Source: Promethearchaeota archaeon
Lineage (GTDB): Archaea > Asgardarchaeota > Lokiarchaeia > Sigyniarchaeales > SOKP01
Reading direction: 5' to 3'
DNA: 24,154 nt
Assembly: GCA_048938025.1 (NCBI GenBank)
Contig: JBHLMP010000053.1
Location: forward strand, 1 to 24,154
The notes below the pieces were generated by a model. The model made no database searches, was not told where the DNA came from, and saw only the letters and a list, made by a program, of their open reading frames with translations. The position numbers and the translations under genes were made by a program. Positions 3,289-24,154 of the stretch are shown here, one piece after another (position 1 is the first letter of the stretch; each line of letters begins with the position of its first letter).

Positions 3289-3813
3289 CTATTCCTTTAA
3301 TGTTAAATAATCTTTTCTTGCTTTCGCATATTCTTCAGCCTTTATTTTTCCAGCTAGGAATTCTTTTTCTTTTTCTCTCATAACCCTTCTTTTTTGAGCT
3401 AACTTTTTCCTTTTTTCTGCTTTTAGGAAATTATTTGAAATATTCTTAGCGATACTTACAATATCTTTATTTTTTTTGTTAATTAAATTGTCTAAATAAG
3501 GTTTGATAGGGATTACCATTTCAATGTTTTTATTGGAAAGTTCTTCAATTCGAATTAATGCGAGAATAATCTCCTCCTCATTTTCACCTTCTAAAACACT
3601 CATTAATCTTGGAATTGCAATATCTTTTGTTATATCGTTAAGATATTCTTCAATTTCCTTTTTTATTTGGGGATCTTTATAACTTTCTAACTTCTTACTA
3701 CGTATATACTCAACAAAAATAAGTGGTAATTCAATAGGCCAATCTTGCATTTTTTCTTTATCGATTAATTGAATAATTCCACCATCTTTTTTGTGAAAAA
3801 CTCTTATATCCAA
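3289..3813 (-). CDS. Hypothetical protein with HEAT-like repeat, coiled coil and SHOCT-like C-terminus
   Basis: TTG start overlaps the last codons of top6A. AIPRLMSVLEGENEEEIILAL and YLDNLINKKNKDIVSIA are HEAT-like; FLAGKIKAEEYAKARKDYL is SHOCT-like. Confidence 0.7.
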   Translation of the reverse strand: MDIRVFHKKDGGIIQLIDKEKMQDWPIELPLIFVEYIRSKKLESYKDPQIKKEIEEYLNDITKDIAIPRLMSVLEGENEEEIILALIRIEELSNKNIEMVIPIKPYLDNLINKKNKDIVSIAKNISNNFLKAEKRKKLAQKRRVMREKEKEFLAGKIKAEEYAKARKDYLTLKE

Positions 3814-4991
3814 TCACCTGTTGTTAATTTTTCTGGAAGGTATGTATTAGTAAGAAACTCAAAACCATGTTGAGAAAGAGCTTGAATTTCTGCTTTTTTC
3901 TTTAATTTTAGAGCTAGGCTTAAATCAAGTTCCCATTGTTTATTCTTTTTAACAAAATCTTCTTTTAATAATTCTTTTGTTCTTTTAACATCCATAGGTT
4001 TCATAGGAAGTCTTACTTCTTCTGGAATTTTGTATTTATCAAGATCTCTTGTTAATACTCCAAGTAGTTTAATATTTGGGGTCGCTAAAAAGGGTGATTC
4101 ATAACTTAATCTTTTTGAACCTCTTAAATATACGCTATGAATATAATGTCCATATGGATCACTATCTACTAGACTAAAAACAGGTAAATTTAATTCTTTA
4201 CTTAAGCGTTTCAAAAACATGCGTGTTGCAATATCTGCTGCTCCTTTTGCTGTAAGGATAATACAGGGATACTTCTTCCAAAACCTATCTTCAGCTAAAC
4301 GTATCATTGCTGCATCTTTTTCTACAACTAATATAAATTCCGCATCTGATTCTATTATTTCTATATTATCAAGCATAGGCGATACCATCCAACCACCACT
4401 ACCTAATCCTTCTAGATCGATTATATCATTTCGATCCCTTATTCTGAGTCTTCCAACGCACATACCTTTAGCAGATGCAACTATATGAGTCGAATTTCTT
4501 GTTGTATATAACATTGCAGCAACATCTTCAATACTTTTATCACTGTTCTTCTGTTCTGTAAATAATTTTACATCGGTATAGAATATTTCCCTTTTAGTAG
4601 CATGTATATCTTTAAATAATAGCTCATTTACGATTTCAAGAACTCTCATTAATCTTGTTAGATCTGCTACACTAGTAAGTGAATGAAATTGCTTTTCTAC
4701 TATTTGTTCACCTAAAAGCAAAAGATCATTCTCTTCATCCCAAATTATATTAGAACTCGTTCTAGCTGGAAGTTGGATGGATGGGCGACCTGTATTGTAA
4801 ATTTTTGTAATAGTATTATCTACTATTGTGTATAATCTTTCAAGAGTCTCGTTTCTGTTAAGATCATCAATCTTTACGGTCCCTTTTGGAAGATCAATTG
4901 ATTTTTCTTCTTTCTCTTTTTGTAAATATAAGTTAAATAATTCTCTAGCTGCTTTTAATTCTTTTTTATCATTTTTTTCTTTTTTAGCCAT
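3804..4991 (-). CDS. top6A: DNA topoisomerase VI subunit A (Spo11/Top6A family)
   Basis: ATKREIFY catalytic-tyrosine motif, F.EQ..SD..IED, TOPRIM motifs ILVVEKDA, TAKG.AD.ATR, LVDSDPYG..I, and KAEIQAL. Confidence 0.97.
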   Translation of the reverse strand: MAKKEKNDKKELKAARELFNLYLQKEKEEKSIDLPKGTVKIDDLNRNETLERLYTIVDNTITKIYNTGRPSIQLPARTSSNIIWDEENDLLLLGEQIVEKQFHSLTSVADLTRLMRVLEIVNELLFKDIHATKREIFYTDVKLFTEQKNSDKSIEDVAAMLYTTRNSTHIVASAKGMCVGRLRIRDRNDIIDLEGLGSGGWMVSPMLDNIEIIESDAEFILVVEKDAAMIRLAEDRFWKKYPCIILTAKGAADIATRMFLKRLSKELNLPVFSLVDSDPYGHYIHSVYLRGSKRLSYESPFLATPNIKLLGVLTRDLDKYKIPEEVRLPMKPMDVKRTKELLKEDFVKKNKQWELDLSLALKLKKKAEIQALSQHGFEFLTNTYLPEKLTTGDWI

Positions 4992-5010: not shown

Positions 5011-8000
5011 TTATTTTAATTTCCAATGTTTTTTACCCATTTTAAGGTCAACTAGAATTTCTCCTTTACGCTCTAGCTCTTTGAGTTTTAACTGAAGGTA
5101 TCTAGCATCCATCATATCCTTAATTTTCAATTTGAATATCAAATGCTTTATTGTTTGCCATTCACCAGATAAAACTTCTAAAATTCGTTCTGTTGTAATA
5201 AGAAGTAATGTTTTTTGAACTGTTTTTGGTTTAGATATAACTCGAGGTTCAGGTCTGACTGCTTCTACTACGCCTTCTGCGATTGGTTTCTCTACTAGAG
5301 GTTTTTCTTTAAAGGATTCTTGTATATTTTTGATGAGATCAGCTTTTCGTATTTTAGAAGATATAGTTATTTTATTTTCTAAACAATATTCCTTAAGTTC
5401 TTTTATAGTCCAATTATTAAGAGTTTTTTCAGAATAGATTACCTTTTTGGGCCTAATTTTTTCAACAATTGGTTCTATCTTAGGAGCTATTACCTCTTTT
5501 TTGATTTCTACTTCCTTGGCTTCTATTTTCCTGGGTTTTTCTTTCTCTATTTCTTCTTTTTTAACTAGGGGCTTTTCTAATTGAATTTTTTCTTCAACAA
5601 TAGGTGTTGGTTTTCTACCAATAGCATTTTTCATTAAATCTTCTAATTCCTCTCTGGTGACCTTTCTACCATATTTACCATCGCCTTTAGAAGTTATATT
5701 GTATAAACTTTCAACGAATATTGGTATATATTTTTCAATTAGACTTGCTCTTTTTTCAGTTCTATGTATACTTGCTCTTCTATTAAGGTAAATTCGTAGT
5801 TTTCTTCCTATAGCTTCAAGACAATATTTTATTTCTTTAATTAGGTCTTCATCATCCGCTAAGGCATTTTTTGATTGAGATTTAAACATTAAATGGACAA
5901 ATGGACCAGAGACATTAACTAATAATTTAATCGGTCCTTTAGGTAAACTATTATCATAAGTATCCAAATTATAATTCTTCCAATTAACTGATTGTACAGC
6001 TTTAGTAATAGCACAATCGGCACTATCTCTTAATTTTGGTGTTCTATTTACAAATCTAGATAAAACATCTCTAGATCGTTTAGGGATTTCAATGTTTTTT
6101 GAATAAGCCATTACAGCTTCTACAACATAGGCTAAACCTTTTCCACTAGTGGGATCACGTGTTTCTGCTGCTACAAAATCATCGTCTCTTGTATAATTTT
6201 CAATAAAATATTCAAAAACATCAGAATAACTTTGAATTGAATCATCTTCTGGAATTATAAGAATTTCATCTATATTTTGCTTAAATTGTTGAAATTCTAG
6301 ACTGTCATCTTTAATATCAATATTTGCTAAAATTTTTGATTCTAAATCAGCAATTTCTCCATAATCTACAGGGATATCTTCCTTAACTTTTTGATCTTCT
6401 TTTTCTAAAGCAAATCTCTTTTCTTCACTTAATATAGAGGAGGTTTGGCTAATCTCGTCTACAGGAGTGTCAAAATCTTCTAGATTTTCTGAAATCCTTA
6501 ATCCTAATTCCTTTATTAATGTATTTTCCAAAATGGAATCACCTACTGGAATAGCTGTATCAGTAGGCGGTGCCATATACTTTATTGATTTGAAAGCAAG
6601 GAAAAGCGAATTAAATTGTTCTCTCGTCAAATCAGAAGGTTTTGCTTTAGAAATTTGAACTTCATTTATTAAATCCTCAAAATCACTTCTATTTTTAAAC
6701 TTTTTTAATTCAATTAGTCCTTCTCTAACATTTTTGAAAAGAATATTAAGTTGATCTTTAATATTTTCCTTTTCCTTCTTAATTCCTTCAATATCAATCA
6801 GAAAATGCTTAATTCTTTTTTCTAAATTTTTTATTTCTTTTTTCGTTTCTACTTTTTCAATACGATTATTAAGTTTTATTATTTCTTTATTTATTTTTTC
6901 ATAATCTTTATCAAAAGTATTATATTTTGAAACTAAATCCCAATATTTTCTTCTTAAATCATCTGATTCAACTTGATATATTATTAATTTATCTCTTGGT
7001 TTATCAGAACGGCCAAAAACTCTCTTTTCATTTCTAAAATAATGAATTTTATCTGTGTGCTTTTCTATTCTAGTAACGAATCCATCTTTTAGAATTAGAA
7101 GCTTTAGATTATCTTGTAAATCATTTTCAGCTTTATCTACAATTTCTTTAGCTATTTTTGAACTAATTCTCACAAAGTTATCTTGTAAGAATGAAGAAAT
7201 AGTTTTCTTTTCTGTTTTTGCAATTAAATCTTGCAGATCACCAATATTTACCGATGATGGGTGAGGTTTGGCATATTTAGGTTCCCGTGGAAAAGAAGAA
7301 GCTAATCTTCGATACATCTTTTCCTTGCCATATGGATCAATATAAATAATTGTAATATGAGGATTCATGAATGCCGTTTCTTCGATATATTTTTCGACAT
7401 AACCTCTAATAAATTTTACGTTTAAATAGTTCAGTTTTATATAAGTTCCATGGAGGAATGCACTGTCAATATCTGTTGGATGAATTAAATACTTTTTCTC
7501 ATTTTTAGATGTTGTAAAAAATTCAGTAACAGTAGCATAGATATTGTCCATTGATTTTGAAACAGCAATAACTGGTTTTCCTGTAGTATTTTGTGCATCA
7601 CTAAAAGCACTCGGCGCACCAAATCCTTGACTACCTCTCGTTTGTTTTAATTCCAATGATTTTGAGGAGGCAAGATATTTCCCAAATTTTCGTAAATCAA
7701 TTTTAGACATTCCCGTACCATTATCAAAAATTTCAAAAGTATAACTCATTACATTTTTCTGACTTATTTCGGAGGTTAAAAATGAAGGAGCTTCAAATTC
7801 TCTCATGCGAACAATTACAATAGGCTCAACATCAATGATATTTTCAACTGGTTTAATAAGTTCTTGCATATCGTCAATAATTCTTTTAACTTCCTCTTCC
7901 ACCTCTAACTCATCTTCTTCACTGATTTCTCCAGATTCCTCTAATTTTTCTTTTGATTCTTGAATAATTGATTCTTCAGATTCAATTGATTCTAAACCTA

Positions 8001-8259
8001 ACTCTTGCATCAATGTGTGTTTTGCTTCATTGTTTAAATGCTGAGATTTTTTTTCTTCTTTGGCTGTTTCAACAATTGAAAATTTCTCTAAAAATAGTTC
8101 TTGATCTAAGGAGAATTTAATTTTCGAATCAGTTTTTTCTAATTCTCTCCACTGAAAGCTTTCAATTGCGTCAAGGGCATTATCAATAAACTCTGCACAA
8201 TATTGTACATGCTTCCAATAACCAAACTCAAAACCAACTAGTTGAGTTCGCTTTCGCAT
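5011..8259 (-). CDS. top6B: DNA topoisomerase VI subunit B, enlarged by three insertions and a C-terminal HEH + winged-helix extension; true start probably upstream of 8259
   Basis: GHKL motifs EFIDNALDA, DNGTGM, FGKYLASSK, QTRGSQGFG; HGT, NPH, AKPHP; transducer motifs RFVNRTP, CAITKAVQSVNWKNY, FKSQSK. Adjacent to top6A. Confidence 0.95.
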   Translation of the reverse strand: MRKRTQLVGFEFGYWKHVQYCAEFIDNALDAIESFQWRELEKTDSKIKFSLDQELFLEKFSIVETAKEEKKSQHLNNEAKHTLMQELGLESIESEESIIQESKEKLEESGEISEEDELEVEEEVKRIIDDMQELIKPVENIIDVEPIVIVRMREFEAPSFLTSEISQKNVMSYTFEIFDNGTGMSKIDLRKFGKYLASSKSLELKQTRGSQGFGAPSAFSDAQNTTGKPVIAVSKSMDNIYATVTEFFTTSKNEKKYLIHPTDIDSAFLHGTYIKLNYLNVKFIRGYVEKYIEETAFMNPHITIIYIDPYGKEKMYRRLASSFPREPKYAKPHPSSVNIGDLQDLIAKTEKKTISSFLQDNFVRISSKIAKEIVDKAENDLQDNLKLLILKDGFVTRIEKHTDKIHYFRNEKRVFGRSDKPRDKLIIYQVESDDLRRKYWDLVSKYNTFDKDYEKINKEIIKLNNRIEKVETKKEIKNLEKRIKHFLIDIEGIKKEKENIKDQLNILFKNVREGLIELKKFKNRSDFEDLINEVQISKAKPSDLTREQFNSLFLAFKSIKYMAPPTDTAIPVGDSILENTLIKELGLRISENLEDFDTPVDEISQTSSILSEEKRFALEKEDQKVKEDIPVDYGEIADLESKILANIDIKDDSLEFQQFKQNIDEILIIPEDDSIQSYSDVFEYFIENYTRDDDFVAAETRDPTSGKGLAYVVEAVMAYSKNIEIPKRSRDVLSRFVNRTPKLRDSADCAITKAVQSVNWKNYNLDTYDNSLPKGPIKLLVNVSGPFVHLMFKSQSKNALADDEDLIKEIKYCLEAIGRKLRIYLNRRASIHRTEKRASLIEKYIPIFVESLYNITSKGDGKYGRKVTREELEDLMKNAIGRKPTPIVEEKIQLEKPLVKKEEIEKEKPRKIEAKEVEIKKEVIAPKIEPIVEKIRPKKVIYSEKTLNNWTIKELKEYCLENKITISSKIRKADLIKNIQESFKEKPLVEKPIAEGVVEAVRPEPRVISKPKTVQKTLLLITTERILEVLSGEWQTIKHLIFKLKIKDMMDARYLQLKLKELERKGEILVDLKMGKKHWKLK

Positions 8260-12399: not shown

Positions 12400-14880
12400 T
12401 TAAAATCTTGAATTTATTATTTCAGAGATTAATCTGGGAAATTCACTATAATCTTTGATGGTTAATAACTGACCCCCAGCTATTTTCACCATTTTTTTAG
12501 CTTCTTTAAGATTATAAGACTCTTCAGGACAAACTAAAATGAAATCGATACCCAATGAACGTAAAATTCTCAATTCCTCAATAGCTTCTCGAAGATCAAA
12601 AATCTCTGCGTCTGTGAATAGCACATTTAATTTTTCACGTGATTGCGCTGCTTCTTTAAATTGTTTTCTTGCCCATTCCAATGCACTTTGAATTTTTGTT
12701 CCTCCCTGTGCTTTAACGCTTAGTAATTCGTCAGCGAGTTTTTCTAGATCTATTTTTTGGGTCATTTCCTTTAATACATGAGTATTTGATTCGAAAAAAG
12801 TGATTGCAAGCTCATCCTTACGCAAACCATAACATAACATAGTTATGCAGATGCTCATATAAGCTAATTTATCACCAGTCATAGAACCGCTTATATCTAA
12901 TTCAAAACAAGCGCTTCTAAGACCTTTTGCGGTCTCAAAAACAAAGAAATCATCATATTGTATGTGGTCTAATTCTTTACCCTTCTCTAAAATGTTATAT
13001 ACGGTTTCTTCTAGATCAATATTCTCAAAATCGTCTCCAATTGAATAAGGTCTTACAATATTTATAGGAATAGGTCCTGTTGTTGCGCTTCCTAATCGTG
13101 CTCGTGAGTAATATATACCCAAGTCAATTAACATCTTTTTTGCCAATTCTTTAACTTTTTGTTTTGTTTTTTCTGGTAAGTCTCTACGATGAATAAACCA
13201 TTGTTTAAGTAAATTTTCTCCACTCCCAGCAGATAAGCATGAAATCATTTTATCTTGTCCTTCTTGACCACCAATTTGGGAAGCTCCTTTTAAAGCTTCA
13301 CTTAAATTGAAATTACCAAGAGCGCCTAATGCCTCTCTATTATCTGAAGCTAAACCACTAGCAATAAGTTCTTTTATCCTTTCATAATTCAATTGATCTT
13401 GAATTTGATTCATTAAATTACTTAAACGTTGAAAATCAGCTTGGTTCTTTTCAACTAATTTTTTTAATAGCTGATAATTTGGTTCTATTAATTCATAAAT
13501 TTCATCTTCAGGCATATCTAGTTCTTTTCCAATTCTTTTTATATCATCTGATTCTGGGTTTAGCCCTATTTTTCTTAAAAATTCAGTCACATTTCTTAGT
13601 TGAGAAGGTGTTTCACAAGATTCTAAAGTTAATGAAGTTAGATCTGGAAGTTCTTGAGCCATCTTTTGACTGCAATGCATATTTGCACAACTATTCATAA
13701 GTTGCTGTAATTGATGAGTTAAAGATTTAAATGCCTCAAACTTCACATTTTGATTTGATGCGTCTGATATTGCATTTTGAAGAGCTTGATTAAAAAGAGA
13801 ATTCCAAGATTTATTTGCAAATGCACTTTTAGTTAAGGTCTCTAAGGAAAGATTGATTTGATTTTGTTCATTGAATTTATCTAATAATGAAGTTCTGAGA
13901 TTTGTACCAAAATACTGATCCAATGAGTTAGCTAGATTAAAATTATGTTCAAATGTATTATTTTGTAAAGAGTTATTTAATACATTTTTTAGATTAAATT
14001 TAGGTGTTTCTCCTAAGTTTTTTGCTGCGCTAAATAATTGATCTAAATTACTTATGTGATCTTGAAGTTTATTTTTCAAATTTTGAAGAGTATCTTTTGG
14101 AATAGCATTAGTCTCATTTAAATATTTTAATGTTTGTAATAAATCTTCTAGATTTCTCGAATTAAGTAATTTATTTAAATCCTCAGAAATATTTTGACCA
14201 TTAAGAGCTTTACTTGTAATTTTTTCCCATGTACGTTTTGATTTTTCTTGGATCAAATCATCCAAGCCTAAAGAATCACCAGCTTTTAAATCTTTTGGAT
14301 CTAACGAATTAATTTTTTGTATTAACCTTTTTTTCGCTTCCTCTAATAATTTATCTAAAGAAGTTATTTCCTCTTTATATAACTCTGAATCATCATTAAA
14401 GAAATTAAGAGCGGATTTAAAGGGTTCTTCATCTCTTTTTTGATTCAACTCATCGAAAAACTGCTCTAATTGTTGGATAACATCTGTATCAACTGATTTA
14501 GTTAGTTCAATTTCATCAATTAAATCCTGAAGTTGATCTAACTCTGTTTTTAACTCAGGACTTATCAATTCTTCTCCAATTTCATTAATTTTATTTTGAT
14601 CGAAAAATGATTTCATTATATTTTTTTTATAATTTGGAAACAGGATCTCGAAAGCAATATCTTTTGCTAATTTTTGATTATCTGGAAATGAAGTAACTGA
14701 ACTAATTTCAATGAAATCATTTGGAGTAACTGATCCTTTACGATAATATCTCGAAACTATTAATTTAGGTATAGATAATACTTGCCTTGAAGATGGAATT
14801 TGTACAATATCGGGATGATTCCTCATTCTCCTAATAAATTCAACAGCAAATTCACACGGATTCTCAGGAAAAATCCCCAA
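12400..14880 (-). CDS. vWA (MIDAS) domain protein, CoxE-like MoxR partner, with N-terminal AAA-lid-like segment and long helical middle region
   Basis: C-terminal RPY...DD...IDLEETV, MIDAS LDISGSM, GGTKI and VLFTDA. TTG start preceded by GGAGGT Shine-Dalgarno in the end of the ATPase gene. Confidence 0.9.
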   Translation of the reverse strand: MGIFPENPCEFAVEFIRRMRNHPDIVQIPSSRQVLSIPKLIVSRYYRKGSVTPNDFIEISSVTSFPDNQKLAKDIAFEILFPNYKKNIMKSFFDQNKINEIGEELISPELKTELDQLQDLIDEIELTKSVDTDVIQQLEQFFDELNQKRDEEPFKSALNFFNDDSELYKEEITSLDKLLEEAKKRLIQKINSLDPKDLKAGDSLGLDDLIQEKSKRTWEKITSKALNGQNISEDLNKLLNSRNLEDLLQTLKYLNETNAIPKDTLQNLKNKLQDHISNLDQLFSAAKNLGETPKFNLKNVLNNSLQNNTFEHNFNLANSLDQYFGTNLRTSLLDKFNEQNQINLSLETLTKSAFANKSWNSLFNQALQNAISDASNQNVKFEAFKSLTHQLQQLMNSCANMHCSQKMAQELPDLTSLTLESCETPSQLRNVTEFLRKIGLNPESDDIKRIGKELDMPEDEIYELIEPNYQLLKKLVEKNQADFQRLSNLMNQIQDQLNYERIKELIASGLASDNREALGALGNFNLSEALKGASQIGGQEGQDKMISCLSAGSGENLLKQWFIHRRDLPEKTKQKVKELAKKMLIDLGIYYSRARLGSATTGPIPINIVRPYSIGDDFENIDLEETVYNILEKGKELDHIQYDDFFVFETAKGLRSACFELDISGSMTGDKLAYMSICITMLCYGLRKDELAITFFESNTHVLKEMTQKIDLEKLADELLSVKAQGGTKIQSALEWARKQFKEAAQSREKLNVLFTDAEIFDLREAIEELRILRSLGIDFILVCPEESYNLKEAKKMVKIAGGQLLTIKDYSEFPRLISEIINSRF

Positions 14881-14884
14881 ATAT

Positions 14885-15826
14885 TTAACCTCCTAGGGTT
14901 TTATGAATAATATTTTCTATAATGTTTTCAACTTTTACTCCAGGTTTGGGTTTAATACTTCCTAATAATACGTGTTTGGCAATTTCAGAGAGGTAAACAT
15001 ATACAGATTCTTTTTCCTCTGCTTTTTTTTCTTTTTCCAAGAGCCTTTTTCTACCTAACATCTTTGCTAATGCAATTCCAGCCCTTATTGATGCTGGAAC
15101 CTCAATATCAATTTTATTTTGTCTTGTTTCTTTTATTATTGAATATATTAATTCTAATTCAGATTCTTCTATAATGAAATGTTCTGGTAAATTAATCCTA
15201 ATAATATCTAATTCAGTAGATTTATCAGGATAAGTTAGTTTAATCCAAACCTTAATTCTATCTTTTAAAGCTTCAGATAATCGATGAGTCCCTGAAAGTT
15301 CTTCAGGGTTCATAGCACATATGAAGAAGAAATCGTTATCGGCTTTAATTCGTCCAAGGTGAGGAATACTAATCGAAGCTTCTTCTAAAGGTTCTAATAG
15401 AGTATTTTGTGAATATTCAGTTGCTCTATTAATTTCATTTGCGAGGAAAGTGCCTCCTTCTAACATTGCATTAAGTAGAGGTCCTGGATTAAACGCTTCT
15501 AATACAAAACCTTTTTTCAATGTGATAGCAGGATCAAATGATCCTATAAAATGGGATGGTTTAATGCTTTCATCCATTGTCAACCAGTTGAAACTTTTAT
15601 TTTTATTTTCTTGAGCTCTTAAACTTGCAAAGTATCTACATAATATGGTTTTTCCTACACCTGGTGGTCCAACAAGAGCAGGAAATAAATTTGTTGCCTC
15701 TGCGTCTCTCAATAATTCTAAGGCCTTACCATATTGTCCTGAAAGAACAATATCAATTTGTTCTTCAGAAATATCTTTGATAAGGCGTTGATTGAATAGT
15801 TCCTCGAACCTTTCTTTATTTATCAT
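14885..15826 (-). CDS. MoxR-family AAA+ ATPase (CoxD/GvpN-like)
   Basis: Walker A GPPGVGKT, GPLLNAM, Walker B FLANEINRA, QNTLL..LEE, sensor I AMNP, LSEALKDR arginine finger, sensor II ASIRAGI. Confidence 0.92.
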   Translation of the reverse strand: MINKERFEELFNQRLIKDISEEQIDIVLSGQYGKALELLRDAEATNLFPALVGPPGVGKTILCRYFASLRAQENKNKSFNWLTMDESIKPSHFIGSFDPAITLKKGFVLEAFNPGPLLNAMLEGGTFLANEINRATEYSQNTLLEPLEEASISIPHLGRIKADNDFFFICAMNPEELSGTHRLSEALKDRIKVWIKLTYPDKSTELDIIRINLPEHFIIEESELELIYSIIKETRQNKIDIEVPASIRAGIALAKMLGRKRLLEKEKKAEEKESVYVYLSEIAKHVLLGSIKPKPGVKVENIIENIIHKTLGG

Positions 15827-15953: not shown

Positions 15954-16820
15954 GTGGAAATTACCTATATAAATTTAGTCAAAATGATAGAGCCTTATTT
16001 TAAAGATAGAAATTTCACTTTATATCTTGGAGATACTTTGGAAATCCTCAATCAATTTGATGATACAAAATTTGATTTAATATTTGTTGATCCTCCCTAT
16101 TTCTTATCCAGTGGAGGGATTACGTGTTCATCAGGTAAGATGGTTTCAGTTAATAAAGGTGAATGGGATAAATCTAAGGGTTTTGATGAAGATATTATGT
16201 TTATTGATTCTTGGTTAAAAGCATGTAAGAGGGTATTAGGTGAAAATGGATCTATTTGGATTTCAGGAACTTTACATGTTATATATAAAGTTGGATATTT
16301 GCTAGAAAAAAATAGTTATGATATTATCAATGATATAATTTGGTTTAAACCCAATGCCCCACCGAATTTATCATGTAAATATTTTACGCATAGTCATGAA
16401 ATTGTTTTATGGGCTCGTAAATCTAAAAATTCATCTCATACATTTAACTATGAACAAATGAAAATTTGGAATAATCCTAAAGATAAATTAAAAAATAAAG
16501 ATAAACAAATGAGAAGCGTTTGGTCAATTCCATTAATTCCTAAGGAAGAGAAAGAATTTGGTAAACATCCTACTCAAAAACCGTTGGAATTATTAAACAG
16601 AATAATTTCATCATCTTCAAATGAAGGTGATTGGGTTTTAGATCCATTTGTAGGGTCTGGAACCACCGGTATTGTGTGTAGTATTTTAAATCGAAGTTTT
16701 GTTGGAATTGACTCAAATAAAGAATATCTGGATGTAGCTATTAAAAGATTTAAAGATAAACGAAAAAAAGAACTCTTATTTTCTTCTGAAAAAAAAAATC
16801 ATTTAATGAAATTTATGTAA
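15954..16820 (+). CDS. Site-specific DNA amino-methyltransferase, beta class, DpnA (M2.DpnII)-like
   Basis: Catalytic DPPY precedes the SAM-binding motif VLDPFVGSGTT (beta order). DPPYFLSSGGITCSSGKMVSVNKGEWDK, WFKPNAPPNLSC, KQMRSVW and GKHPTQKP are characteristic of DpnA-like GATC m6A MTases. ATG at 15984 is a likely alternative start. Confidence 0.92.
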   Translation: MEITYINLVKMIEPYFKDRNFTLYLGDTLEILNQFDDTKFDLIFVDPPYFLSSGGITCSSGKMVSVNKGEWDKSKGFDEDIMFIDSWLKACKRVLGENGSIWISGTLHVIYKVGYLLEKNSYDIINDIIWFKPNAPPNLSCKYFTHSHEIVLWARKSKNSSHTFNYEQMKIWNNPKDKLKNKDKQMRSVWSIPLIPKEEKEFGKHPTQKPLELLNRIISSSSNEGDWVLDPFVGSGTTGIVCSILNRSFVGIDSNKEYLDVAIKRFKDKRKKELLFSSEKKNHLMKFM

Positions 16821-16938: not shown

Positions 16939-19317
16939 ATGCAATTAGAACAAATTCCACCTTCAAATTATAAAGTACGTACATTGAGAATGAAAGATAA
17001 GGTTGTTAAACAACCACATGAAATTTGTGTAGAAAGAGCTAAATTATTTACGGAATCCTATAAAAAAACTAAAGGAGAAAATCCAATTATTCGATTTGCC
17101 AAAGCCATGGATTATTTATTAGCTAATATGACAATTAAAATTTGGGATGATGAATTTATAGTGGGTAATAGATGTACTAAATTTGTGGGAACTCCTTTAT
17201 ACCCTGAAGCACGAGTAGATACAATAGAGCAAGATATTGATAATTATGATACTCGTCCAGTCCAGAAATTTTTGTTAACTAACGAAGAAAAGCAGTATAT
17301 TAAGTCAAAAATCATTCCTTATTGGAAAAATGAAGAAGAGACTGTACAAGAAAGATTTCAATCATATTTAAGTCCAGATATGCGTGATATCATGGAAAAA
17401 ATGTTGTTTATTGTAGATGTAGAGCTCTCTAGTGGAATTGGTCATTTTTTTCCTGGTCATGAAATTGTTTTTAAAAATGGGATGAAAGGTTTGATTCAAA
17501 AAACAGAAGAACATCTGGAAAAATTTTCCAATGACAATAATAAAAAGATATTTCTGGAATCGGTATTAACAGTTTTAAATGCAGTATTAAAATTTATTCA
17601 GAGATTTTCAAGATTAGCAAAAACAAGGGCTGAGGAGGAATTAAACGCCGAACGCCAAAAAGAACTTCATGAAATCTCTGAGATTTGTTATAATATCTCT
17701 CAAAATCCCCCTAATAGTTTTAAAGAAGCTTTACAATTAATTTATTTTACCCACCTAATATGTGGCTTAGAGGATGGGGGCTTTGCTATTTCAGTTGGAC
17801 GCTTGGATCAATATTTATATACCTATTATTTAAAAGATTTAAAAGAAGGAAAGATTACAAAAGAAGAAGTTCAGTTTCTTATTGAATGTTTTTTCATTAA
17901 ACTTTCTACTCTATGGAATTATGTTATTTCAAAAGGAGTAGTGGCTACTGAAGGACCTCCTATTGCTGAAAATGTAGTAATTGGAGGATTAGATCGAGAA
18001 GGAAATGATGCCACTAATGATTTATCGTTAATTATTTTAGAGGCATACAATCATATAAAAACAGTTCAACCAACATTTTGTATCAGAATTCATAAAGATA
18101 CATCAGAAGAATTTTTGATAAATGTAGGAGAATCTATTAAAACTGGTACCAGTATTTCTTTACTTAATGACCAAGTGATGATACCTGGTCTTATAAGTCG
18201 AGGTTTTACCCTCGAAGATGCAAGGGAATATGCATCAATTGGATGTTTTGAACCTCAACATCCATACAAATCATTTGGATCAACGAATGCGAATCAATTT
18301 AATATTGTAAAATGTTTAGAGTTAGCATTAAATAATGGAGTTGACATGTTAACTAGAAAGGAATATGGATTGAAAGAATCTAGAAAGATTACTTCTTATG
18401 AAGATCTATGGGATGTTTTTACTGATCAAGTGAAATATTTCATTGATTATATGGTAAGAACGATGTTTTTTGTTGATAAAGCTATTGCAGAACTTACTCC
18501 ACAACCATTTTTATCTGCAACTATAGAGAATTGTATAGAACAGGGTCTCGATGTAACTAAAGGTGGAGCAGTTTACAATTTTACCGGTGCTCTACTAATC
18601 GGACTAGCCACAGTAGCAGATAGCCTTGCAGTAATTAAAAGTGTAGTTTTTGAAGAAAAACTCCTCCCATTTGAAGATTTAGTCCAATTACTTGCAAAAA
18701 ATTTTAGAGGGATATATCAAGGAAGAAAAGGAAAAGAATGGCGAGAAATTTTTATAAATAAAGTGCCTAAATTTGGGAATGATGATGATTACGTTGACCA
18801 GATAGCACTCAAAGTAGCTAAATTTTATTGTGAGGAAATTGCGAAGTATTCAAATTATCGCGGAGGAAAATTTAATCCTGGTATTTATTCCACCACCTTT
18901 CACTTAGCTTTTGGTATGTTTACAGGTGCTTCTGCTGATGGTAGAAAAGTAACGGAACCACTTTCAAATGGACTTGGTCCAACGAGCGGCATGGATAAAA
19001 AAGGTCCTACAGCCATTCTCAATTCTATTAAAAAACTTAAAAATGAGTTAATGACAAATGGTAATTCATTAATTTTAGCATTCCATCCAAATACATTAAA
19101 AATGGAAATTTTTATTCCACTTGTTAAATCCTTTTTCGAAACAGATGGGGGTTATCAAGTTCAATTTAACGTTGTAGGTAAAGATACTTTGTGTGATGCT
19201 CAAAAAGATCCGAATCAATACCGAGGTTTAGTTGTAAGAGTAGCAGGATATTCTGTATACTTTACAGAATTATCAAAACTTGCGCAAGATGAAATTATAG
19301 CTCGAACTGAGTATTAA
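16939..19317 (+). CDS. Glycyl radical enzyme (PFL-like superfamily, single-Cys dehydratase/eliminase type; substrate unknown)
   Basis: ICVERA, ISVGRLDQYL, QPTFCIRIH, Cys loop IGCFEP (18241-18255), PKFGNDDDYVD, ASADGRK, glycyl loop LVVRVAGYS near the C-terminus. Confidence 0.93.
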   Translation: MQLEQIPPSNYKVRTLRMKDKVVKQPHEICVERAKLFTESYKKTKGENPIIRFAKAMDYLLANMTIKIWDDEFIVGNRCTKFVGTPLYPEARVDTIEQDIDNYDTRPVQKFLLTNEEKQYIKSKIIPYWKNEEETVQERFQSYLSPDMRDIMEKMLFIVDVELSSGIGHFFPGHEIVFKNGMKGLIQKTEEHLEKFSNDNNKKIFLESVLTVLNAVLKFIQRFSRLAKTRAEEELNAERQKELHEISEICYNISQNPPNSFKEALQLIYFTHLICGLEDGGFAISVGRLDQYLYTYYLKDLKEGKITKEEVQFLIECFFIKLSTLWNYVISKGVVATEGPPIAENVVIGGLDREGNDATNDLSLIILEAYNHIKTVQPTFCIRIHKDTSEEFLINVGESIKTGTSISLLNDQVMIPGLISRGFTLEDAREYASIGCFEPQHPYKSFGSTNANQFNIVKCLELALNNGVDMLTRKEYGLKESRKITSYEDLWDVFTDQVKYFIDYMVRTMFFVDKAIAELTPQPFLSATIENCIEQGLDVTKGGAVYNFTGALLIGLATVADSLAVIKSVVFEEKLLPFEDLVQLLAKNFRGIYQGRKGKEWREIFINKVPKFGNDDDYVDQIALKVAKFYCEEIAKYSNYRGGKFNPGIYSTTFHLAFGMFTGASADGRKVTEPLSNGLGPTSGMDKKGPTAILNSIKKLKNELMTNGNSLILAFHPNTLKMEIFIPLVKSFFETDGGYQVQFNVVGKDTLCDAQKDPNQYRGLVVRVAGYSVYFTELSKLAQDEIIARTEY

Positions 19318-22171: not shown

Positions 22172-22987
22172 TTATTCGTTTTCACCTAGTTGTTCACTTT
22201 TTCCTTCTTCCTCAACTCCTAACTGGGTGATCATTGCCTTTTTCAATTGACTTATATTTTTTGGTAATCCAAACATATCAGCATATTTATCAGTAGTAGT
22301 TAATTCTTGAGATCTTCCTTTTTTTATTGCATTTATGAACCCATTATCTAATAGATATTTTACATGTTCATAAGCTCCAGTTCCTCTTAATTTAATTACT
22401 GTTGATTTTAATATAGGTTGCTTTAATGCAATTACTGTTAAAGTTCTCAAATAACGTTCTGCAATAGCTCCACCTTTAGCAAATTTTGAAACTTTTTCCG
22501 TATATTCAGGTCTTATCTGCATTTGATACCTATCCCCAATTTGTGCTATTATTAATGCAGTGGAGCGATCTAAATAATCGAATGCTATTTCGTTGGTTAA
22601 TTCTTCCACTTCTTTTTTAGGTAATTCTAATTTTGTTGATAACTCTTCAATAGTTAAAGGTCGACCAGCAGCATATAAGGAAGCTTCAATTAGATTTCGA
22701 TGAAATTCTCTTAACTGTTTTTTTAATAATTCTTCATCCAATTCTTGAACTTCTATAGATTTTCCTTCAATAATAGAATCTACCTTTTCTATTATCGAGA
22801 GTTCATTATCAATTTCATCTACTTCTTCAGTAATATTATTTTCAGAAACAACTTCAAATTCTTCTTCATTCTTTTCAGTTTTAGTAATTTCGTCTAATTC
22901 TTTATCAAGATCTTCAGAAACTTCTTCTAAATCTTCAATAGGTTCTTTATCTAAATTATCATCTAAATTCTCGTTAGAATTATTCAT
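22172..22987 (-). CDS. scpB: SMC-Scp complex subunit ScpB with acidic N-terminal extension
   Basis: LIEASLYAAGRPLTIEEL, YQMQIRPEY, LRTLTVIALKQPI, IKLRG, TTDKYADMFGL (tandem winged helix). Downstream of scpA and smc. Confidence 0.93.
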   Translation of the reverse strand: MNNSNENLDDNLDKEPIEDLEEVSEDLDKELDEITKTEKNEEEFEVVSENNITEEVDEIDNELSIIEKVDSIIEGKSIEVQELDEELLKKQLREFHRNLIEASLYAAGRPLTIEELSTKLELPKKEVEELTNEIAFDYLDRSTALIIAQIGDRYQMQIRPEYTEKVSKFAKGGAIAERYLRTLTVIALKQPILKSTVIKLRGTGAYEHVKYLLDNGFINAIKKGRSQELTTTDKYADMFGLPKNISQLKKAMITQLGVEEEGKSEQLGENE

Positions 22988-23014: not shown

Positions 23015-24013
23015 CTATCTAGTAATTACAGAAATATCTTTAAAATCTTCATTTTGAGATAACGTCAATTTATTTCCAGTGGATAAAAACATTAATGCTA
23101 AAAACATCCTTACTAAGGAAAATTTCCTGCCAATATCACTTTCTTCTTCAGTTTTAATAATTTCAGTCAAGTTATAAAAACTAGTTGGTTTATTGTCTAA
23201 ATCAATTGTAGCTTTTATACGATTGAGCCATGATTCGTGTAATTCTTCTATTGTTTGATCTTTTCCACTGATATGTTTTAAGAGTTCCCTTGGTAATTGT
23301 GCTTTAGATTTAATTTGTAGTCTTTGTTGCTTTAATTCTTCCTTTCTCATTTGTCTTCTTCTTATTTTCTCCTTATTTTGCATTACTTCTATGATTGCTG
23401 ATCTCATTGCATCAAATAATTCATCTTTTGTAGCTAATTGCATTTTAGGTTGTATAGGTTGTGGTAATGCTTTTGGGATGGATCGCGCATGTGTTTCTCT
23501 AAATTTTTTTAACTCTTCCATTTTCTGTATTTGTTCTTCTTCTCTGATAATGCTTGAAATTTTATAATGATGCAAACTTGCTGATGTTTTAAGTGCTATA
23601 CCAGATATTTTATAATTAATTAAATCCTCGTGAAGCATATTGTCAAAAAATTTATCAACTAAACTAGCCAAATCATAAAATGCAATTTCCGATTCTTTTG
23701 CCAACTCAGGATCTAATAGACTTGAATAGGGTGGTTTTTGCCAAAATTTCAATTCCATCTTTTCTTTTCTTAATAAAGCAAGATCCTCTTCTTCATCAAA
23801 TCCAGCAACTAATTCTTCTTCAAGTTCTTCTGGTTCTTGAGACCTATCGACAAATTCAGGATGAGAAACAATTTTTTCAAGGAATTCGATAATTTCTTTC
23901 TTTTTAGACTTTGACGGTATTTTAATATTATTCTTACTAGCGAACTCTCTTAACTCCTTTACTGTCCATTGAGTAAAATCAAATTTATTCTGTAAATCTT
24001 GCTTTTCTGATAT
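23015..24013 (-). CDS. scpA: Kleisin ScpA with N-terminal HEH (SAP/Rho_N-like) extension; probable ATA start (ORF track starts at internal ATG 23758)
   Basis: Kleisin motifs YDLASLVDKF, SGIALKTSASLHHYK and the C-terminal LVRMFLALMFL...LSQNEDFKDI. The frame stays open 85 codons upstream of ATG 23758 to ATA 24013-24011, which lies 6 nt after an AGGTGA Shine-Dalgarno. Located between smc and scpB. Confidence 0.85.
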   Translation of the reverse strand: MSEKQDLQNKFDFTQWTVKELREFASKNNIKIPSKSKKKEIIEFLEKIVSHPEFVDRSQEPEELEEELVAGFDEEEDLALLRKEKMELKFWQKPPYSSLLDPELAKESEIAFYDLASLVDKFFDNMLHEDLINYKISGIALKTSASLHHYKISSIIREEEQIQKMEELKKFRETHARSIPKALPQPIQPKMQLATKDELFDAMRSAIIEVMQNKEKIRRRQMRKEELKQQRLQIKSKAQLPRELLKHISGKDQTIEELHESWLNRIKATIDLDNKPTSFYNLTEIIKTEEESDIGRKFSLVRMFLALMFLSTGNKLTLSQNEDFKDISVITR

Positions 24014-24027
24014 TTTTTCTCACCTTT

Positions 24028-24154
24028 TTAATTTTCTGTAATGGTTGGCTCAATATCTTCAAGTTCTAAAAGTCTTTTAGCTTCTTCTTCTAAATCAACA
24101 CTAAAGATATCGGTGATCCCACTCTGTTGCATTGAAACTCCATAGATTCTATCT
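24028..24154 (-). CDS. smc: C-terminal end of chromosome segregation protein SMC (partial)
   Basis: Minus-strand translation DRIYGVSMQQSGITDIFSVDLEEEAKRLLELEDIEPTITEN* matches the SMC C-terminal (A)DxxYGVxM..G motif and lies directly upstream of scpA-scpB. Confidence 0.85.
   Translation of the reverse strand, partial: DRIYGVSMQQSGITDIFSVDLEEEAKRLLELEDIEPTITEN

Follow-up and report, generated by a model that had tools for sequence, protein, structure and literature searches.

Why would a topoisomerase and a condensin-type complex carry the same small domain? The question is raised by a stretch of 24,154 nt from a Promethearchaeota archaeon (contig JBHLMP010000053.1 of assembly GCA_048938025.1), which we refer to as "the window". 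At one end of the window, the minus strand encodes Top6B of topoisomerase VI (topo VI), with Top6A directly downstream; at the other end, the same strand encodes a presumed smc tail followed by an ScpA-like kleisin and ScpB. Topo VI and Smc-ScpAB are core archaeal machines for untangling and folding chromosomes, respectively. A sequence-only reading of the window proposed that one helix-extension-helix (HEH) module is appended to both Top6B and ScpA, and that it co-recruits the decatenase and the condensin to the same DNA feature or chromatin protein. Here, we describe evidence that the two segments are copies of a single lineage-specific module. As to its function, we lean modestly toward a generic nucleic-acid anchor that has been shuffled onto flexible tails, as opposed to a dedicated address tag shared by the two machines.

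A module shared by Top6B and ScpA

The two proteins and the relevant parts of the Top6B tail are located as follows.

5011-8259, minus strand: Top6B gene, 1082 aa, carrying large insertions as well as a long tail at the C terminus (NCBIfam NF003218)
5449-5637, minus strand: K/E/P-rich linker ahead of the Top6B module; predicted local distance difference test (pLDDT) < 50 (model residues 13-63), predicted disordered
5314-5421, minus strand: HEH module of Top6B, residues 947-982 (family hidden Markov model [HMM] A1, Pfam, AlphaFold2 [AF2])
5194-5304, minus strand: second K/P-rich Top6B linker, from the module to the C-terminal domain; pLDDT < 50 (model residues 112-127)
5014-5193, minus strand: winged-helix-like C-terminal domain of Top6B, nearly invariant (AF2, Foldseek)
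23015-24013, minus strand: ScpA-like kleisin, long form, 332 aa counted from ATA (open reading frame [ORF] with NCBI table 11 starts)
23873-23980, minus strand: HEH module of ScpA (A1 HMM, Rho_N over cut-off, AF2, dN/dS)

The Top6B peptide, LNNWTIKELKEYCLENKITISSKIRKADLIKNIQES, is the translation of positions 5314-5421 (minus strand; residues 947-982 of Top6B), and the ScpA peptide, DFTQWTVKELREFASKNNIKIPSKSKKKEIIEFLEKI, is that of positions 23870-23980 (minus strand), in frame with the ScpA-like gene. The modules, each of ~36 aa, align without gaps. We built an HMM from these two segments alone and used it to scan the 3.52-Mb genome (29% G+C), covering every one of its 40,085 stop-to-stop frames of ≥30 aa. 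There was one further copy, at E = 5.4e-12, and the next best frame had E = 0.38. Because of this result, we attribute the likeness of the two modules to homology and not to chance. The sequence-only reading had quoted both peptides as one module, a claim that is borne out by translation and by the HMM. It had also suggested such a scan as a means of revealing enrichment in DNA-transaction proteins; the third carrier in this genome is a gelsolin-domain protein (see below).

Comparison with Pfam places the module among the SAP, HeH and Rho_N families. Taken in isolation, the two segments match Rho_N, HeH, SAP and Ish1; the ScpA module matches Rho_N with 27.7 bits (cut-off 24.9), and the Top6B module matches Rho_N with 21.6 bits and SAP with 19.9 bits, both below the cut-offs. 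When 16 orthologous modules were compared with Pfam at E ≤ 0.01, 12 matched Rho_N, 12 Ish1, 8 HeH and 6 SAP; a related Top6B representative matches Rho_N with 43.4 bits. The family HMM A1 finds the Top6B copy (5317-5424) at E = 8.3e-17 and the ScpA copy at E = 1.1e-18. AF2 models made from orthologue alignments predict two helices separated by a 10-residue extension in each case: helices 18-27 and 38-49 for the ScpA copy (block pLDDT 78-80), and helices 78-87 and 98-110 for the Top6B tail (block pLDDT 82-88). The stretches around both modules have pLDDT < 50. Profile matches and predicted fold together indicate that both segments are HEH modules of the HeH/SAP/Rho_N type, as had been assigned from the letters. 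They belong to a single subfamily, specific to this lineage, whose members begin with an invariant W-T.

The extent of conservation between the two copies bears on the proposal of a shared address tag, by which one DNA feature or chromatin protein would gather topo VI, condensin and a gelsolin-type actin regulator. Positions conserved in both the ScpA and the Top6B copies include W5, T6, L10, I19, K24 and K27, a point in its favor. Against it, the identity between ScpA and Top6B copies is just 31-47%, as compared to 61-81% for ScpA copies within the genus. Conserved K/S residues are frequent in the extension and where helix 2 begins.

Top6B is identified by its match to NCBIfam NF003218 (309.9 bits; cut-off 274) and to Pfam Topo-VIb_trans (E = 1.5e-28); its GHKL ATPase domain matches HATPase_c_3 with 23.4 bits, slightly below the cut-off of 25. 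Studied Top6B proteins comprise ~530-620 aa. All of the complete Top6B frames examined across the order are long, with open frames of 1013-1246 aa. We refer to the host's Loki-type Asgard family as f1, to other families of the order as f2-f4, and to genera of f1 as g10, g11 and g12; "the genus" is that of the host. The Top6B module is an insertion within a poorly conserved K/P-rich linker. Conservation of the linker at 5449-5637 is low in alignment A3, and the linker at 5194-5304 differs in length and sequence across the same alignment. The end domain is predicted by AF2 to consist of three helices and a beta-hairpin (block pLDDT 89-94). Its top Foldseek rows are winged-helix DNA-binding proteins and Z-alpha, all with E ≥ 0.045 (HlyU, 3jth, E = 0.045, root-mean-square deviation [rmsd] 1.5 over 59 columns; Z-alpha, 1qbj, TMt 0.70), so that none of the rows for the tail model reaches E ≤ 0.001. 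Among eight Top6B C-termini inspected from the order's other families, seven show this well conserved ~60-aa domain (L041 lacks it); it is also seen in two of the three from g11, the third (L172) being cut inside the domain.

Within the genus, 17 of 19 genomes have the module on Top6B; one of the other two has a complete Top6B without the module, and in the other the gene is cut by a contig end. One Top6B in the family carries two copies. The complete Top6B of genome G013 has a clean deletion of exactly the module, and its ScpA retains the module. The loss from one machine and not the other argues against a tag that serves to bring both to the same address.

The scpA gene and its start

The ScpA-like frame is the sole match to PF02616 (SMC_ScpA) in the genome, with E = 0.003 and 18.6 bits as compared to a cut-off of 24.6, and the match is confined to the C-terminal part of the protein. 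The gene sits between the putative SMC 3' end and scpB, and its homologues carry the JGI label "Rec8/ScpA/Scc1 (kleisin family)". There was no NCBIfam match, and a full-length profile found no PDB sequence at E ≤ 1. The AF2 model of the whole protein has a mean pLDDT of 58, and a wide fold search (VIA) gave mostly single long helices (Z ≤ 5.9). One row aligned T4 endonuclease VII residues 103-157 to the HEH region (Z 5.8, rmsd 2.2, 51 aligned); because of the low mean pLDDT of the model, we give it no weight. The features that bear on the start of the gene, and the segment that follows the module, are listed here.

24028-24153, minus strand: putative SMC 3' end, an open frame leaving the window (basis, gene order)
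24020-24024, minus strand: GGTGA, Shine-Dalgarno-like, conserved upstream of the ATH codon; its TGA ends the frame
24011-24013, minus strand: proposed near-cognate start ATA (comparison with relatives)
23756-23872, minus strand: VSHPEFxDR motif and acidic linker, from the module to the kleisin core (alignment A2)

We take the frame at 24028-24153 to be SMC partly from its resemblance to SMC C-terminal motifs; a Pfam scan of the 41-aa piece gave no match. In alignment A2, S50, P52, F54, D56 and R57 of the segment after the ScpA module are nearly invariant, and pLDDT falls below 50 from residue 60.

The frame contains none of the usual start codons (ATG, GTG, TTG) between its TGA (24020-24022) and the ATG at 23758. 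What the sequence-only reading called an ScpA extension is therefore only partly as described: it is in frame with the ScpA-like gene and conserved, but it does not lie in an ORF with a usual start. One explanation is that the ScpA copy of the module is an untranslated relic and that the true start is the ATG at 23758. This would account for the lack of a usual start ahead of the module, and for the public gene calls of the closest relatives, which are 247 aa long. Nonetheless, we regard a relic as very improbable. First, the ScpA frame is open, with 334-340 aa, and the module is kept in all 18 genomes of the genus that have an intact locus. Second, the module is under purifying selection: across 45 codons and 153 pairs from the 18 genomes, pS averages 0.65 and pN 0.13, with a median dN/dS of 0.10 for the 118 computable pairs. 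Third, the ATG at 23758 is not conserved, and relative L015 has no usual start in its first 110 codons. Fourth, relatives L008 and L121 have ATG at the very codon where we place the start, and the sister genus g10 starts M-S-E at the apparently matching place, where this genus reads I-S-E (matched by eye).

Among 65 distinct ScpA frames, 58 fit the HEH pattern, two (L152 and L155) have a variant with L for W, and five have no module. Of the 58 HEH-bearing frames, 41 have no ATG, GTG or TTG before the module, and 28 of these 41 read GGTGA-NNN-NNN-ATH, where ATH is ATT in 16, ATA in 11 and ATC in one. The ATH codon lies 7 nt after GGTG, i.e., 6 nt after GGTGA, in the scpA loci of relatives (including L001-L018 and L094-L166). 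From this comparison, we take the ATA at 24011-24013 as the most likely start of ScpA, 6 nt after GGTGA. Two other routes to the long form were considered and set aside. The GTG within GGTGA is in another frame and yields an ORF of only 12 codons. Read-through or frameshifting from smc is at odds with the smc stop codon being in another frame and with the in-frame stop before the ScpA frame differing among relatives (TGA, TAG or TAA). In the literature listings searched, there was nothing of relevance on non-canonical starts in Lokiarchaeota.

Because scpA has no usual start codon, about half of public gene calls truncate the module: of the 120 best public homologues, 61 have the complete module and 59 start inside or after it. 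For the same reason, surveys of domains that start from predicted proteomes will miss part of the ScpA fusions.

Other carriers and distribution

The three close copies of the module in this genome are those of Top6B, ScpA and a 320-aa protein encoded outside the window.

Contig C48:1527-2582, minus strand: gelsolin-domain module carrier (Pfam and family profile)

The C48 protein has 464 homologues at E ≤ 1e-5, which are unnamed or "hypothetical" among the matches listed. Alone, it matches PF00626 with 18.3 bits, under the cut-off of 21. A profile of 24 family members matches, in its N-terminal region, 7c2f (Thor ProGel; E = 5.3e-6), 7c2h (4.3e-5) and 7whg (4.6e-5). By this profile, the third regular carrier is a gelsolin-domain protein. 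Members of the family begin with a gelsolin domain, followed by a middle domain, and end in a single HEH module or in two; gelsolin-like proteins with two tandem copies occur within f1. There are two paralogue types, the longer of which ends in RRxLPKIPxxDD (L081-L089, L108, L110 and L113-L116). Nearly all genomes of the genus have gelsolin-domain carriers.

In other genera of the family, several further proteins also carry the module. A 423-aa protein (L109; G093 C13) combines an IFT52-type GIFT domain (PF23355, 37.3 bits; cut-off 27.2) with a C-terminal HEH module, frames of 420-437 aa match the module HMM in many g12 genomes, and a 784-aa acidic repeat protein carries the module in another genus of the family. 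Worldwide, 318 representative proteins match the module at E ≤ 0.001. Among the best 150 of these, 87 were scanned, and they include tandem arrays, two Top6B proteins, PolB, SNF2 and HMG-box proteins, as well as kinases, leucine-rich repeat proteins and a methyltransferase. The sequence-only reading held that scattering over functionally unrelated proteins would speak against its proposal, and such scattering is found in part, both within the family (the gelsolin-domain, GIFT-domain and repeat proteins) and worldwide (the kinases, leucine-rich repeat proteins and methyltransferase).

A more distant Rho_N module is encoded on contig C78 (21254-22201, minus strand), at the N terminus of a 314-aa protein (26.5 bits, over the cut-off); it stands apart from the tight three-carrier subfamily. 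The C78 protein is kept across the genus (L090, L091) and contains a CDCRIG...CSHFW motif, which is presumably SWIM-like, with no Pfam SWIM match listed. On contig C68, a frame that resembles a small GTPase has a weak Rho_N match (E = 0.3), which we put down to chance.

The range of carriers raises two explanations in which DNA is not the ligand. In the first, the module docks on a partner protein or on itself, linking or regulating the carrier complexes with no nucleic-acid contact. The LEM branch of the superfamily binds a protein, gelsolin-domain and GIFT-domain proteins are odd hosts for a DNA binder, Top6B and gelsolin-like proteins can have tandem copies, and the strongly conserved VSHPEFxDR after the ScpA module resembles a docking motif. 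However, the module scores best in Pfam against branches that are associated with nucleic acids (Rho_N, SAP and HeH), the K/S residues of the extension and helix 2 start are conserved, and relatives have basic tails at the site of the module. We consider protein docking quite unlikely. In the second explanation, the ligand is RNA or an acidic surface other than DNA (F-actin, acidic lipids), or else the module adjusts how soluble the disordered tails are or how they phase-separate; if so, its presence on Top6B and ScpA says little about chromosome biology. Rho_N is the best Pfam match, the module is always within long, charged, low-confidence linkers, and a gelsolin-domain host would suit an F-actin or membrane ligand. 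Weighed against this, Top6B and ScpA both act on DNA, and many of the worldwide carriers are DNA enzymes (PolB, SNF2, HMG-box proteins and Top6B), such that we find this explanation, too, rather improbable.

The module is largely confined to family f1. Of the 41 genomes in the genus, 39 have between one and five copies, and the completeness of the remaining two is 58% and 62%; the copies are on ScpA-sized, Top6B-sized and gelsolin-like frames, with additional weak matches of the C78 type. A class sample has the module in 96 of 102 f1 genomes as compared to one of 18 from other families, the latter being a weak match (E = 8.9e-4). A phylum sample has it in 22 of 25 f1 genomes as compared to two of 125 others, both in small frames. 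Inside f1, the module was not found anywhere in five g11 genomes. Inspection of three g11 Top6B loci likewise revealed no module, and there was no module match in 11 Top6B loci of f2, f3 and f4, three of which are cut by contig ends. Absence from the orthologues of relatives, the other observation that the sequence-only reading would have counted against itself, thus applies in part: the module was not found on ScpA or Top6B orthologues outside f1, nor on those of g11.

Relatives that lack the module have other sequences at the same sites. The ScpA of f2 has a K/T/S-rich N-terminal tail. In g11 (L167-L169), ScpA has a normal ATG followed by MPKCPYCGK.F.RLSQHKC, a C2HC zinc-finger-like motif at the position of the module. 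Top6B proteins of f2, f3, f4 and g11 retain the K/P-rich linker, free of the module, and gelsolin-like orthologues of g11 and f2 have T/K/S-rich or short basic tails where the module would be. The presence of basic tails or a zinc-finger-like motif at these sites suggests that the role is a generic one, of charge or DNA binding. Such appendages are also natural variants of these tails.

Distribution and gene order also speak to the shared address tag, on both sides. In its favor, (i) the modules of the three main carriers form a single close-knit subfamily, distinct from the genome's other Rho_N-like module, (ii) all three have the module in most f1 genera and none has it in g11, and (iii) top6BA and smc-scpAB are 10-28 kb apart, on the same contig, in many genomes of the family. 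Against it, (i) the GIFT-domain and repeat-protein carriers have no link to the chromosome, (ii) the all-or-none pattern may be one single evolutionary event, (iii) module-free g11 has its two loci similarly close together, and (iv) the sites in relatives are filled by basic tails or, in g11 ScpA, by the zinc-finger-like motif. The two loci are widely separated in two single-contig genomes (G006 and G035). The extra, unrelated carriers, the loss in G013 and the substitutable site make co-recruitment less economical than a generic anchor, and we consider the tag unlikely. Of the original proposal, what stands is that the module is found family-wide on Top6B and ScpA orthologues and is kept by selection, as measured for the ScpA copy; specificity for decatenase and condensin does not, given the gelsolin-domain, GIFT-domain and repeat-protein carriers.

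The partner genes of the two loci are as follows.

3804-4991, minus strand: Top6A gene (Pfam TOP6A-Spo11_Toprim, E = 1e-59; TP6A_N, E = 1.3e-17)
22172-22987, minus strand: ScpB gene (Pfam SMC_ScpB, PF04079, E = 2.2e-33, 115.6 bits, residues 99-250)

ScpB has an acidic, D/E-rich N-terminal extension of ~95 aa (22703-22987, minus strand) ahead of the Pfam-matching part. Between top6BA and smc-scpAB lie genes for an AAA_5 ATPase and a VWA-domain protein (12400-15826, minus strand), an N6/N4 DNA methylase (15954-16820, plus strand) and a pyruvate-formate-lyase-like glycyl radical enzyme (16939-19317, plus strand).

Possible role and comparison with known systems

In the explanation that we favor, of a shuffled generic anchor, a ~36-residue module would have been copied, in an ancestor of most f1 genera, into flexible, poorly conserved tails and linkers of at least three recipients: the C-terminal linker of Top6B, the N terminus of ScpA and the C terminus of the gelsolin-domain protein. 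It would later have spread to a few further proteins. The Top6B tail leaves the end of the transducer, close to Top6A and the DNA gate, and the ScpA N terminus is located at the SMC neck, adjoining the heads. A DNA anchor held on a leash at either site would plausibly help DNA capture. On Top6B and ScpA, judging from what is known of the superfamily, the module may serve as a small anchor, tethered by a long leash, that holds DNA or another polyanion regardless of sequence; it would be placed together with the order-wide winged-helix end domain on Top6B, and beside the SMC neck and heads on ScpA. It would thereby raise the local affinity of both enzymes for the chromosome, replacing basic tails that may do a similar unspecific job elsewhere. 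The long ScpA would be made from the ATA, ATT or ATC start 6 nt after GGTGA.

Several observations weigh against this explanation or limit its reach. The module is all-or-none over the three main carriers between genera, being absent from g11 and present elsewhere, and it is retained on ScpA and Top6B throughout the family; a shared specific partner would fit this pattern equally well. An early branching of g11 is suggested by its lower ScpA identity only (52-54%, as compared to 59-87% for other genera). The Top6B module of this genome, taken alone, is under every Pfam cut-off, and the module profile found no solved structure among PDB sequences. The best hit of that search, the dsRNA-binding protein R2D2 (E = 0.011, nine columns), is unrelated to the module and not meaningful. 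Nucleic-acid binding by the module is deduced from family knowledge, and the ATA start from comparison. Lastly, it is not obvious why a gelsolin-domain protein would have to bind DNA, and the ligand may therefore not be DNA.

The third carrier also permits a bolder idea, which we hold to be a long shot: that the module is a common chromosome-contact handle for condensin, topo VI and a gelsolin-type actin regulator during segregation. If this were so, an actin-based system would be physically coupled to the Asgard chromosome, a eukaryote-like trait, and the supply of kleisin would be set by a conserved weak ATA/ATT start. Whichever explanation holds, one Loki-type family, close to eukaryotes, has given the same small domain to topo VI and Smc-ScpAB. 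That the gelsolin-domain carrier could link actin and DNA is the point most worth testing.

Each part of this arrangement has a counterpart among known systems. The infC gene of E. coli has a near-cognate AUU start. The conserved ATH codon of scpA is similarly well spaced from a Shine-Dalgarno-like motif, and likely gives a low or regulated rate of initiation; unlike infC, scpA is an archaeal kleisin gene directly downstream of smc. In E. coli, MukB and ParC make direct protein contact, coupling a condensin to a topoisomerase. The two cases share the idea of an SMC complex and a decatenase at the same place, but here there is just a common small module, and no sign that both complexes meet.

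C-terminal accessory elements are found on other type II topoisomerases, including the C-terminal domains (CTDs) of GyrA and ParC and the tail of eukaryotic topo II. For Methanosarcina mazei Top6B, an immunoglobulin-like CTD is described in PMC11302465. The Top6B tail described here likewise adds an element beyond the transducer or core, close to the DNA gate, and could influence how DNA is bound. It differs in consisting of ~200 residues of predicted disorder that hold an HEH module and end in a winged-helix-like domain, and is neither immunoglobulin-like nor a beta-pinwheel. Among the Asgard mini-gelsolins, 1DGelX has a domain X that is unknown and predicted to be a coiled coil, according to the main text of PMC7444086. 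The third carrier resembles 1DGelX, as presented there, in having one N-terminal gelsolin domain and a further region, and its profile matches the structures of Thor ProGel, Thor 2DGel3 and Loki 2DGel; it differs in ending in one or two HEH modules. That main text has no mention of SAP, HeH, LEM or DNA-binding. In the portions of the literature covered by our searches, we found no paper describing HEH fusions to Top6B, a kleisin or a gelsolin-domain protein, the order-wide winged-helix-like end of Top6B, or the conserved ATH start of scpA.

The closest relatives of the module itself are SAP, HeH, Rho_N and Ish1 (PF02037, PF12949, PF07498 and PF10281). Like them, it comprises ~35 aa in two helices with a 10-residue extension, and has the hydrophobic/E-L-[KR] and [KR]-K-x-[ED]-[LI]-[LI] signature. 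Unlike them, the subfamily has an invariant W-T start, is confined to one archaeal family, and has Top6B, a kleisin and a gelsolin-domain protein as its hosts. The promiscuity of the HEH superfamily is already known; what appears to be new here is the particular set of fusions.

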